A DNA stretch of 64,000 bases, from assembly GCF_013122565.1 (NCBI RefSeq), contig NZ_CP053258.1. One strand, given 5' to 3'. The DNA is from Escherichia coli (GTDB lineage: Bacteria > Pseudomonadota > Gammaproteobacteria > Enterobacterales > Enterobacteriaceae). Under the pieces are notes generated by a model, which saw nothing but the letters and a program-made list of their open reading frames with translations, was not told where the DNA came from and searched no databases. Shown piece by piece: positions 3,917-59,544 of the stretch; positions within the stretch are counted from its first letter, which is position 1, and every line of letters starts with the position of its first letter. The translations under genes and the position numbers were made by a program.

Positions 3917-5299
3917 TTATCCCACCAGCATCCAGGTCGCCGGAACTGAGGCAATTAACAGCATGCCAATCAGCACCATTTCCTGACGGTTCAGTACATT
4001 ATCATGGGTATGCGTTTTACGCGCGTACAGGAAAACCAGCAGCCCCGGTGCATACAGAACAACGGATAACAGCAAGTGCATTGGACCAGAGGCGTACAAT
4101 AACCATAAGCCATAAATGCAGGCACCGACACCTACCGCTTTATGCAGTGGACGGGTTGCGATTTTCAGCAAGAACGCGCCGACCAGGAAATAGGGCACCA
4201 GAATCATTTCTGAGGCGATGGTCAGCAACGTGTTGTAATCGGAACCGGTCAGCCAGATGAGTACCAGACAAATTTGCACGCAGATGTTAGTCAACCACAG
4301 TGAGGCGGATGGCGCAGCTTGTGCGTTCTGGCGCGCAAAAATGCGCGGGAATGCTTTATGAGTGGCGGCCAGGAACGGAACTTCTGCCGCCATGATGGTC
4401 CAGCTTAAGTACGCGCCGCAAACGGAAACGATCAAACCGGCAGCGATGATGATTTCGCCCCACGGTCCCATCATTTCCACCATCAGACCGGCCATTGACG
4501 GGTTACGAATTTCAGCCAGTTCAGGACGTGCCACCACACCCAGCGAAAGCAGCGTTACCAGCAAGTAAACGCCCAGAGCGGAGAGAACCGCCAGCAGTGT
4601 CGCTTTGCCAACATCACGTTTATTACGCGCACGCGCAGAAACAACCACGGCACCTTCCACACCAATGAAAACCCACAGGGTGATCAGCATGGTGTTTTTC
4701 ACCTGTTCCCACACGGGGACGCCAAGTGCAAGTCCGGTGAAGTCGAGCTTGAAGGTATCCAGTTTGAACATCATCATAGCCAGCACAACAAACAGACCCA
4801 GCGGCAACAATTTTGCCAGTGTCGCCACCAGGTTAATGCTGGCAGCGGTTTGCACCCCGCGCAGGATCAAAAAGTGAACAATCCACAATAAAGCCGATGC
4901 ACCGACGATCGATTGCCAGGTATTACCATCGCCAAACAGGCGCAATTCCGGCGTGTCCGTAAAAAAGCTTAACGCGGAAAAAACGATTACCAGATAGGAG
5001 ACGTTGGCGATGACTGCGCACAGCCAGTATCCCCATGCGGAACAAAAGCCGATTAGCTCGCCAAACCCTTCGCGGGCATAGGTAAAGATACCGCCGTCAA
5101 GTTCGGGACGAATGCGCGTGAGGATCAGCATGGCAAAGGCCAGTAATAAAATACCAGCGCCAGTGATACCCCAGCCGATGAGCAGTGCTGCCGGGCTGGC
5201 AACTGCCGCCATATTTTGCGGCAGACTGAAAACACCCGCGCCCAGCATTGAGCTTAATACCAGCGCGGTGAGTGCGCTCAGTCCCAGTTTCTTTTCCAT
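3917..5299 (-). CDS. ydgI: Putative arginine/ornithine antiporter (ArcD-like, APC family)
   Basis: 460 aa polytopic membrane ORF; recalled match to E. coli YdgI. Confidence 0.85.
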   Translation of the reverse strand: MEKKLGLSALTALVLSSMLGAGVFSLPQNMAAVASPAALLIGWGITGAGILLLAFAMLILTRIRPELDGGIFTYAREGFGELIGFCSAWGYWLCAVIANVSYLVIVFSALSFFTDTPELRLFGDGNTWQSIVGASALLWIVHFLILRGVQTAASINLVATLAKLLPLGLFVVLAMMMFKLDTFKLDFTGLALGVPVWEQVKNTMLITLWVFIGVEGAVVVSARARNKRDVGKATLLAVLSALGVYLLVTLLSLGVVARPELAEIRNPSMAGLMVEMMGPWGEIIIAAGLIVSVCGAYLSWTIMAAEVPFLAATHKAFPRIFARQNAQAAPSASLWLTNICVQICLVLIWLTGSDYNTLLTIASEMILVPYFLVGAFLLKIATRPLHKAVGVGACIYGLWLLYASGPMHLLLSVVLYAPGLLVFLYARKTHTHDNVLNRQEMVLIGMLLIASVPATWMLVG

Positions 5300-56691: not shown

Positions 56692-57450
56692 TTACTCCGT
56701 ACGGCGGGCAACAATAAAAAGACGCGGAAATGCCAGCAGTATCTGTCCGTTCTCTTGCAGTGGATACTGCTCTTCCAGCATCTGATGGTAGCGCGTAAGA
56801 AAAAGCTGCTGTTCGCTCTCGGTCAGATCCTGTAACCACGGACGTAATCCAGTGGCGGTCACCCAATCGATAATCGCCTGGTGCGACGGCATCTGGTGAT
56901 AGTAGGTGGTTCGCCAGATATCGACCTCACATCCGGCTTCGCTCAAAATATCGTAGTAAGCATGAACGCCAGCCAACGGCTCACGCCCGCGATCCGGGTA
57001 GTTTTGTTCCCAGGCAACTTCGCGCATGAGCACATGGGTCGGCTCCAGCCAGTTATCTGGCATCTGTACTGCCAGCACGCCCTGCGGATTAAGTAAAGAA
57101 ACCAAGTGAGGAAACAATTCGTAGTGGTCGGGCAGCCATTGCAGTGAGGCATTAGCAAAAATCAGATCGAGTGCCTGTTCCGGTTGCCAGTTGCGGATGT
57201 CTGCTTCCACGAACTGGCAGTCTGGCAAAGCACTGCGCGCTTCAGCAATCATCGCCGGAGACGAGTCGATGCCTGTTATCCTGGCCGCAGGCCAACGTTG
57301 ATGCAGCAGGGCGGTGCTGTTACCTGGGCCACAGCCAAGATCGGCAACGTATTTGATATTCTCCAGCGGCACTCTGGCAAGCAGCTCCACCGCCGGACGC
57401 GATCGTTCAGCGGCAAAGTGCAGATATAAAGAGGGGTTCCAGTCAGACAT
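56692..57450 (-). CDS. tam: Trans-aconitate 2-methyltransferase
   Basis: 252 aa; SAM-binding [10 protein letters not shown] motif. Confidence 0.9.
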
Positions 57451-57499
57451 TTATTTACTCCCGTCAGCGCGTTACCCCAATTGTAGATAAAACTGTTGA

Positions 57500-59240
57500 C
57501 ATCCTCCACGCCCTGAATGACGAGGATCCTGCTACGTTCAGGCTGTCGCCTGAATCATTTCGGTGGGTTCCTGCTTCAACGGGCGGCCTGACTGCACCAT
57601 CCCTCCACAGGCAAGAACGGCGTACCCCGCCGCTAAAATGTTACGAGCGCCGTTTACATCGGCGTTCGCTGTATATCCACATACCTGGCATCTGAATTTA
57701 CTTTGTGACAGGCGATTTTCTTTCGTTGTATGACCACAGCACGCGCAACGCTGGCTTGTGTACGCTGGCGGAACAGCAAGCACCTGACCGCCACACCAGA
57801 GCTGCTTGTACTCAAGCTGGCGACGCATTTCATACCAGCCCTGATCCAGTATCGAACGGTTTAAACCTGATTTTGCCCGGACATTGCGCCCCGGCTGGCT
57901 GACCGTACCCGCTGCTGACTTTGACATGTTGCTGACCTTCAAATCCTCAATGACTATCATTGCGTGGTTTTTGCTGACGGTCGTTGTGACTTTGTGAAGG
58001 TAGTCCCTGCGGATATTTGCGATACGGGAATGCAGTCGCTGTATTTTGCGTTTCTGCTTCTGCCAGTTGTTGCTGAATTTGACCTTGCGGCTTAACTGTC
58101 GCTGAAGTCTCGCCAGCTTCTTCTGGTTTTTCTGAAAACTGTTTACAGGCTCAAAGACTGTGCCATCTGACAGCGTGGCGAGTTTAGCCACGCCAGCATC
58201 CAGCCCGATCATTGATGCTGAAGGGTGAACCGGAGTGGATACTTCACTTTCTGTCTGAATACTGATGTGCCACTTACCGCAGGACTGGCTGACCGTGACA
58301 TTTTTCACAACACCCGTGACCTGACGGCTATTCCGGTAGCGCATCCAGCCCAGTTTCGGCAGAAAAATACGGCTGTTTTCCTGATCGAGCTTAACGCCCT
58401 GCGGGTAGCGGAATGCATCATTCTGTCCCCGCTTTTTGAATCGGGGAAAAGCAGCCCGCTTCCGGAAGAAGTTTTTGTAAGCCCACTCAAGGTCTTTCAG
58501 TGACTGTTGCAATGGCTGTGACGGGGCATCTTTAAGCCATTGCGTTTCAGTGGCATTTTTCCACTCAACCAGCCAGGAAGCCATTTTCCCGTAAGGGATG
58601 TATTTATTACCGGCCTCATGATTCTCATTCTGACGTGCCAGAGCACGATTGAAAACGAAACGACATGCGCCTGCGAAGCGCCTCATTTCACGCTCCTGTT
58701 GACCACCGGGTCTTAACTGGAATTTAAATGCCTGTAGTCGTTTCACAGGTCAAATGATATTTTGGTCTGTGAAAAAAGAAACCGATATCCGGCGTGGAAG
58801 GCATTGTGTTTTCCTGAAGCATGTTCACATGGTCTTTGTCACCAAATACCGACGCCAGATTTTTGACCATGACGCGACAGAAAAACTACGCACTTACTTT
58901 TCAAATGTATGTGCTGATTTTGAAGCTGAACTGGTTGAAATGGATGGCGAACCAGATCACGTCCATTTGTTAATTAACTATCCTCCCAAACTGGCGATAT
59001 CCAGTCTGGTAAACAGCCTCAAAAGCGTATCGGGTAGGTTACTGCGACGAGATCGACCAGATATTGCAGCCAGGTATTACTACAAAGGCGTTTTGTGGAG
59101 TCCTGGCTATTTTGCCAGTAGCTGCGGAGGTACGCCAATATCCGTCATCCGCCAATACATTGAACAACAGCAAACACCTGGTCAGGTGGAAAACCACACC
59201 TTATATCCCCGCCCTGAAGGACGGGGTTTTACGGCGCACC
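57500..59240. mobile_element. IS200/IS605-family insertion sequence (IS609-like), about 1.7 kb, with tnpA and tnpB
   Basis: TnpB and Y1 TnpA ORFs fill the gap between tam and lsrG; similar imperfect palindromes near both ends (57506-57525 and 59207-59226). Ends approximate. Confidence 0.6.
57538..58746 (-). CDS. tnpB: TnpB (IS200/IS605 OrfB; RuvC-like RNA-guided endonuclease family)
   Basis: 402 aa, GTG start; RuvC-I GLDAG, RuvC-II IEDL, RuvC-III NADVNGA and CxxC...CxxC zinc finger present; starts [18 protein letters not shown] as recalled for E. coli InsQ. Confidence 0.9.
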
Positions 59241-59335
59241 GGATAAATTCGCCTCACGGCATCAACCCATTGAACAGACGCTTTTTACGCGGCCCGGTCA
59301 TTAAAGATTCCAGTTTCGCGACACAGGTTTTGTAG
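58754..59335 (+). CDS. tnpA: IS200-type Y1 (HuH) transposase TnpA; ORF as read extends past the expected C-terminus
   Basis: HVHLL HuH motif and conserved YY/GYF tyrosines; canonical proteins are about 150 aa, so the true end is probably near 59210-59240; the rest is read-through overlapping lsrG. Confidence 0.8.
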
Positions 59336-59544
59336 TGAGGCGTGGTTTTATGGAATGCCACTGCGTCTTCATCTTTATAGGCTTCGTAAATATAAAAGCG
59401 CGAATTCACTTCCGGGTCCTGTAAGACATCGAAGCGCAAATTGCCTTCTTCCTGTACAGAGCCCAGGTGGTTCTGGCGAAAAACTTCGATAAACTCGTCA
59501 ACCTTGTCTTCATGAACGTTAATTTCAACCAGTGTGACGTGCAT
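59254..59544 (-). CDS. lsrG: (4S)-4-hydroxy-5-phosphonooxypentane-2,3-dione isomerase LsrG
   Basis: 96 aa; translation [26 protein letters not shown]. Confidence 0.9.

Follow-up and report, generated by a model that had tools for sequence, protein, structure and literature searches.

An IS609 copy in the tam–lsrG spacer of Escherichia coli with paired subterminal palindromes and a tnpA frame that probably reads through a lost stop codon

The window, that is, the whole analysed stretch of 64,000 nucleotides of Escherichia coli DNA, contains an insertion sequence of the IS200/IS605 family between tam and lsrG. The host spacer split by it is the 56-nt tam–lsrG intergenic gap of E. coli. The features of the locus are as follows.

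56692–57450, minus strand: tam (open reading frame).
57480–57650, minus strand: probable omega/reRNA, with the scaffold at 57496–57650 (tnpB 3' end and right end of the element) and a guide of about 16 nt from the flank at 57480–57495.
57496–59242, minus strand as the inferred top (active) strand: IS609-type element, 1747 bp, complete, delimited by copy alignments and the empty site.
57496–57505, minus strand: terminal 10 nt of the right end, AGGATGTCAA, the last bases being the TCAA cleavage site; invariant in 14 of 14 copies and relatives examined.
57506–57525, minus strand: right-end subterminal imperfect palindrome IP_R, CCTCGTCATTCAGGGCGTGG on this strand; the left-hand motif of the window, a weakened allele.
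57538–58746, minus strand: tnpB (insQ-like), RNA-guided endonuclease, 402 aa, intact, identified by Pfam and NCBIfam.
58754–59182, plus strand: tnpA core, 143 codons, Y1 HUH transposase with the HVH motif and the catalytic tyrosine in RQYIEQQ.
59183–59185, plus strand: lost stop codon of tnpA, CAG here (GGT CAG) for the ancestral TAG, by T>C at 59183.
59186–59335, plus strand: read-through tail of the tnpA frame, crossing the left end (to 59242), the target and flanking DNA with the lsrG 3' end, up to a stop codon at 59333–59335.
59196–59200, minus strand: inner arm of the outer left-end stem, pairing with 59233–59237 in the alignment fold of nine elements.
59207–59226, minus strand: left-end subterminal imperfect palindrome IP_L, CCCCGTCCTTCAGGGCGGGG on this strand; the right-hand motif of the window, conserved across copies and genera.
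59227–59242, minus strand: 16-nt left-end linker CCGGTGCGCCGTAAAA, from the cleavage site to the hairpin foot, read from the sequence.
59243–59246, minus strand (read 59246 to 59243): target tetranucleotide TTAT, ATAA on the plus strand; outside the element, unduplicated, the presumed TAM of TnpB.
59254–59544, minus strand: lsrG (open reading frame), convergent to tnpA.

The extent of the element was defined by comparison with its other copies. In a megablast search of 5,426 complete E. coli genomes the central 1.75 kb is found at 97–98% identity in more than 4,300 genomes and at many different sites, and the homology to copies at other sites starts at 57494–57496 and ends at 59246–59248. The initial annotation had named such a comparison as the way to see where homology stops; it stops at 57496 and 59246. 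When both ends were aligned in seven copies, the one in the window and those at six other loci, the common sequence extended from TTGACATCC... to ...CACCGGATAA and no further. The end alignments and the empty tam–lsrG site place the element exactly between ...AAACTG and ATAAATTCG.... The empty site, ...GATAAAACTG ATAA ATTCGCCTCACGG..., is found in 4,212 genomes and contains TTAT once (L007/L008); the tam–lsrG junction with the element is present in only 31 of the 5,426 complete genomes. The joined flanks of the window are 4 nt shorter than the empty site, and the occupied site keeps TTAT once, on the left-end side, with no target duplication. Hence the boundaries at 57496 and 59242 and the absence of a duplication follow from the copy alignments and the empty-site comparison taken together. 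The E. coli copies, including those at the six other insertion sites, all have TTAT on the 5' side of their left end, as do relatives from Proteus, Photorhabdus, Morganella and a metagenome. In IS609 cleavage would be expected at TTAT and at TCAA, and by the relation described for TnpB elements (PMC8612924) TTAT would also act as the TAM.

At this locus tnpB is oriented like lsrG and tam (57451–59253), and tam now lies 45 nt downstream of the right end, so that transcription coming from the element may be needed for its expression. The tam gene is co-transcribed with the lsr operon. In another strain, E. coli PT62 (L024, 491–2333), an IS3-family element is inserted in the tnpA of an IS609 copy at the same tam–lsrG site.

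The two ends carry similar motifs. The motif at 57506–57525 is CCACGCCCTGAATGACGAGG and that at 59207–59226 is CCCCGCCCTGAAGGACGGGG; they match at 17 of 20 positions in direct orientation, exactly where the initial annotation had placed them. A search of both strands of the whole 64-kb window with up to three mismatches returned only these two sites, against an expectation of 0.00 from 100 dinucleotide-preserving shuffles. The reading of the motifs as a chance likeness, or as REP-like sequences or terminators of the host that have nothing to do with the insertion, could appeal to their small size alone; the motifs accompany the element at each insertion site and neither is present in the empty site, and the shuffles, the copy alignments and the empty site together refute this reading, whose probability we regard as negligible. 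Conservation of the motifs in other copies, on which their interpretation as IS200/IS605 ends had been made to depend, was indeed found: both are kept by E. coli copies inserted at six other sites and by the relatives from Proteus, Photorhabdus, a Klebsiella plasmid, Morganella and a metagenome.

The right-hand motif (59207–59226) folds, as had been noted, into a stem-loop followed directly by TTTT (59227–59230). Its energy is –9.5 kcal/mol as plus-strand DNA, with a bulge, and –9.6 kcal/mol as minus-strand DNA, with 8 pairs including one G·T. The suggestion that both motifs are end hairpins is supported by conservation and covariation, although the left-hand motif (57506–57525) of the window itself barely folds (–2.9 kcal/mol, z –0.5, vs –7.7 kcal/mol for the K-12 allele) because this allele has T·T and A·G mismatches. 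Pair 3/18 of the IP_R stem is A–T in K-12 and Proteus, T·G in Photorhabdus, C–G in Klebsiella and Morganella, and T·T in the window; this covariation supports the stem. The weak allele with T·T and A·G is common to the copies at the yeaQ/DUF1869 and yfeD sites. In the window one nucleotide is also missing from the run adjoining this hairpin (57506–57530; GGATCC-TGC vs GGATCCCTGC), a deletion otherwise seen only in strain Combat11I9, at the same site.

An alternative is that the right-hand hairpin with its TTTT is mainly an intrinsic terminator, serving tnpA or shielding lsrG, and that its likeness to the other motif is secondary. It is indeed a G+C-rich stem-loop followed by four T at the tnpA 3' end, and in consensus copies the left-end structure folds strongly as plus-strand RNA (–35.6 kcal/mol, z –3.4, vs –22 kcal/mol in the window copy). 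However, a terminator scan (G+C-rich stem, at least 5 T within 8 nt) made no call, as only four T follow the stem; the E. coli allele of L025 and the Klebsiella element have ATATAA instead of TTTTAC; and the same hairpin occurs at the other end without a T-run, as the transposase-binding model predicts. We therefore consider a mainly terminator function unlikely. The hairpin and TTTT are better explained as a transposase-binding palindrome and the complement of AAAA at the guide position, and a terminator role of the left-end hairpin may be an additional, secondary one.

The minus-strand order is 5'-TTAT, CCGGTGCGCCGTAAAA, CCCCGTCCTTCAGGGCGGGG ... tnpA antisense, tnpB sense ... CCTCGTCATTCAGGGCGTGG, AGGATGTCAA-3'. 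Because of the position of the target, the geometry of TCAA and the orientation of tnpB, the left end of the element is placed at the right-hand side of the window, and the minus strand is most likely the active one, on which the hairpins would be read. The hairpin changes, assessed by whether they give a G·T wobble or an A·C mismatch, are divided: about five favour the minus strand and three the plus strand. In the outer left-end stem the window has two substitutions, at 59196 and 59198, both G>A on the plus strand, which give G·T wobbles on the minus strand. Where IS608 has its guide G_L, the linker ends in AAAA, the complement of which is the TTTT of the initial annotation, and by analogy this AAAA beside the hairpin would act as the guide.

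The guide/cleavage pairing rule of IS608 (AAAA/TTAT in the manner of AAAG/TTAC) was considered and set aside, since the ATATAA allele of ATCC 8739 is still flanked by TTAT. This second left-end allele, ATATAA for TTTTAC after the hairpin, lies at about 2240–2290 of L025 (E. coli ATCC 8739), is also seen in L019/L020 and with protein P0022, and forms a nearly perfect 19-bp palindrome (GCGCCTTATATCCCCG...CGGGGATATAAGGCGC). Photorhabdus also has, about 1 kb from a complete element, a truncated piece of a left end standing on its own (TTAT CCGATGCGCCGTAAAACCCCGTCCTTCAG...; L017, about 4020–4045, reverse strand).

The tnpB product yields the Pfam domains HTH_OrfB_IS605, OrfB_IS605 and Cas12f1-like_TNB and a full-length match to the NCBIfam model guided_TnpB (2e-114). 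The stop codon of the gene is 12 nt from the right-end hairpin, so that the tnpB 3' end is at the right end. In TnpB elements the reRNA is formed from the tnpB 3' end and the right end (PMC8612924). An omega/reRNA is probable at 57480–57650, with the predicted guide CAGTTTTATCTACAAT and the predicted TAM TTAT. The hairpin over the tnpB stop codon shows compensatory changes (GC, 4; AU, 3; GU, 2), and so does the stem enclosing it (AU, 5; GC, 4); the changes in the stop-codon hairpin fit the scaffold model of the omega/reRNA (PMC8612924). The fold z-score of the candidate RNA is –3.1. No Rfam family reached its gathering score at the tnpB 3' end and right end, the weak matches being HgcC (E 0.017) and RAGATH-18 (E 0.026). 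By analogy, TnpB and the omegaRNA would play their usual role in this element.

The tnpA gene is divergent from tnpB, and their starts (tnpB GTG 58746; tnpA ATG 58754 or GTG 58769) are covered by a 14-nt inverted repeat, TTTCACAGGTCAAA / TTTGGTCTGTGAAA, at 58741–58774, 86% complementary with a 6-nt spacer. Such a repeat might serve as an operator or fold so as to occlude the start codons. TnpA matches Pfam Y1_Tnp (9e-41, residues 19–139) and NCBIfam transpos_IS200 (4e-42), H69, H71 and Y135 are invariant in the TnpA alignment, and the alignment with the IS608 and ISDra2 TnpA structures reaches residue 140–144 or so. At codon 127 (59130–59134), directly ahead of the helix with the catalytic tyrosine, the window has threonine (GGTP) in a motif that is otherwise GGAP with hardly any variation.

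The open reading frame itself is longer. It runs from 58754 to 59335 (193 aa), continuing 36 codons past the right-hand motif and overlapping the lsrG 3' end by 82 nt, in agreement with the 35–40 codons and the lsrG overlap reported initially. Homology with other copies ends 87–89 nt short of the end of the frame. TnpA relatives of about 80% identity, from Salmonella, Photorhabdus, Proteus, Klebsiella, Morganella and Yersinia, have 138, 143 or 146 aa and all end in ...QQQTP[G/S/D]; hence the expectation that TnpA normally has about 150 aa, and not about 190, was borne out. The window copy is without a TnpA of the reference length (143 aa, ...QQQTPG), having CAG at 59183–59185. TAG stands at this position in the E. 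coli copies L004, L012–L015 and L025 and in other genera: Salmonella (L009), Proteus (L016), Photorhabdus (L017/18), Klebsiella (L019/20) and Morganella (L022/23). In these TAG-bearing copies and relatives the last codon and the stop read GGT, AGT or GAT followed by TAG. The tnpA frame thus enters lsrG because T>C at 59183 removed the stop codon. In the PGAP annotation the CAG copies are pseudogenes "missing C-terminus", and the TAG copy L004 is given 143 codons. The possibility of a frameshift, with the true C-terminus in the frame that ends exactly at the element end, was rejected: none of the aligned homologues has such a C-terminus, and the relatives that keep the stop codon all end in ...TP[G/S/D].

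The residues after the lost stop are common to all CAG copies up to ...GFTAHRI, which is the translation of the left end and target; beyond this point they are specific to the insertion site. The suspicion that the extension is read-through into flanking DNA was therefore well founded, the tail varying by insertion site and its cause being the change of TAG to CAG. In Proteus and Photorhabdus the 60 nt past the stop codon, which are untranslated there, are 80–88% identical to E. coli, vs 77–78% in the coding region (ungapped comparisons). Among the CAG-bearing E. coli copies, every substitution in the extension is non-synonymous. Conservation past the stop without translation, together with these non-synonymous changes, shows a constraint on the left end at the level of DNA.

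The stop-loss form is the common allele in E. coli. An exact 61-mer across the stop codon occurs in the CAG form in 3,844 of 4,379 E. coli records containing this region and in the TAG form in 588 of 4,373, and CAG copies are seen at five or more distinct insertion sites. CAG is therefore no isolated defect: either spread of elements carrying the extended frame or conversion has brought it to many sites, and an extended TnpA may still be functional. Both this predominance and the number of sites might be taken as a sign that the extension is a genuine, selected C-terminus, made of 20 residues encoded within the element and a variable tail, and involved, for example, in regulation or binding of the ends; the CAG of L021, a second and less closely related element (77% identity), points the same way. 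Nevertheless, the protein ends at this codon in relatives from six genera, the DNA is equally conserved where it is untranslated, the changes in the extension are all non-synonymous, as described above, and the tail beyond the element is arbitrary. Moreover, in many copies tnpA has internal stops or frameshifts while tnpB is intact at 402 aa, and the K-12 copy of IS609 did not transpose in mutation-accumulation lines (PMC5009759). A selected extension is thus very unlikely. As a separate observation, the related element in L021 (a JGI metagenome contig, 739–2429) has a tnpB shortened to 230 aa, adjoined by fragments of a group II intron reverse transcriptase/maturase (RVT_1, GIIM).

The explanation that we strongly favour is that the two motifs are the subterminal imperfect palindromes of IS609 and that the tnpA extension is a stop-loss read-through, not a real C-terminal domain. 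IS609, with tnpA and tnpB divergent as in IS605, was inserted in the tam–lsrG spacer 3' of TTAT, without duplication. A dimer of the Y1 HUH transposase would recognise both motifs as hairpins on one strand, here the minus strand. A single T>C at 59183 changed the ancestral TAG, following ...QQQTPG, to CAG, so that translation, if any, would continue through the left-end DNA, the target and the outside DNA to a chance stop. The making or activity of an extended TnpA is hypothetical, and the left-end stretch is conserved for its function as DNA. The overlap of the tnpA frame with lsrG is a read-through artefact with no evident meaning.

We also considered that the stop-loss is tolerated or even favoured, the TnpA C-terminus being set by the left end and host DNA and the transposase being attenuated by way of non-stop mRNA and tmRNA. 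If transcripts ended at the left-end hairpin, they would be non-stop mRNAs yielding tmRNA-tagged, degraded products, and TnpB with the omegaRNA would keep the element in place. This is speculation, and we rate it as quite improbable.

The stop-loss read-through accounts for the "transposases" that gene callers assign to IS609: close E. coli homologues of TnpA in the database have 141–254 aa, as expected if the stop is lost and the frame runs into host DNA. The combination of stop-loss and intact tnpB in most E. coli copies fits the picture of the family, in which tnpA decays and tnpB is retained. The exact boundaries and target of one IS609 copy are of little importance beyond annotation. In the literature on IS609 or InsQ/TnpB we found no description of tnpA read-through, only surveys and the report on the lack of transposition in K-12; the element is already known, and the dominance of the stop-loss in E. 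coli is the sole mildly new point.

The following traits of the IS200/IS605 family are present: a Y1 TnpA, subterminal palindromes in the same orientation in place of terminal inverted repeats, a target without duplication, and the tnpB 3' end at the right end. RefSeq annotates the copies as InsQ/TnpB plus tnpA, and one of them as "IS200/IS605-like element IS609 family transposase" (PGAP). On the evidence of this PGAP name and of near-identity to E. coli copies, including those of K-12 derivatives, the element is IS609. The stop-loss is a defect at the level of the allele, common to most E. coli copies, and is no ground for exclusion from IS609. The K-12 IS609 (ydcO–ydcL, insQ/tnpB) is 97–98% identical over 1.75 kb and has the same ends, TTAT target and CAG stop-loss. 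It differs in its insertion site and in an internal stop of tnpA, absent from the window tnpA; the window in turn differs from K-12 in the weaker right-end hairpin allele, the adjacent 1-nt deletion and the two left-end substitutions.

In IS605 of Helicobacter pylori tnpA and tnpB are divergently transcribed, with the tnpA 3' end toward the left end, and the window pair is arranged likewise; IS605 is a different element in a different host, and the likeness is by organisation alone. In IS608, also from H. pylori, the two genes are co-directional, unlike the divergent pair of the window. IS608 (TnpA structures 2a6m and 2vjv) nevertheless resembles the window element in its Y1 HUH TnpA (E 4e-18), the same-orientation palindromes, the TCAA end 10 nt from the hairpin, and the unduplicated tetranucleotide target outside the 5' end. 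By this geometry, movement of the element would be of the strand-specific, single-strand "peel and paste" kind. TTAC serves IS608 as both target and left cleavage site and is external to the element, preceding the left hairpin by 19 nt; TCAA, cleaved on the right, is internal and follows the right hairpin at 10 nt; and the guide tetranucleotide AAAG adjoins the left hairpin at its 5' foot, G_L being AAAA(G) (PMC3201880). In the window the target is TTAT instead of TTAC, the left distance 16 instead of 19 nt, and the guide AAAA instead of AAAG.

ISDra2 of Deinococcus radiodurans is similar to the window element in TnpA (E 2e-16 to structure 2xm3) and in having TnpB. The ISDra2 reRNA is made from the tnpB 3' end and the right end and has a guide derived from the flank, and the sequence targeted by TnpA is also the TAM (PMC8612924); this target is the pentanucleotide TTGAT, as opposed to TTAT in the window, and the omegaRNA of IS609 is putative. 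Outside E. coli, IS609-like elements are seen in Proteus, Photorhabdus, Klebsiella plasmids, Morganella and Salmonella; their TnpA is about 80% identical, and they share the hairpins and AGGATGTCAA. With the exception of Klebsiella they also share the TTAT target, whereas the TAG stop lost in the window is kept in these relatives, giving a TnpA of 138–146 aa.
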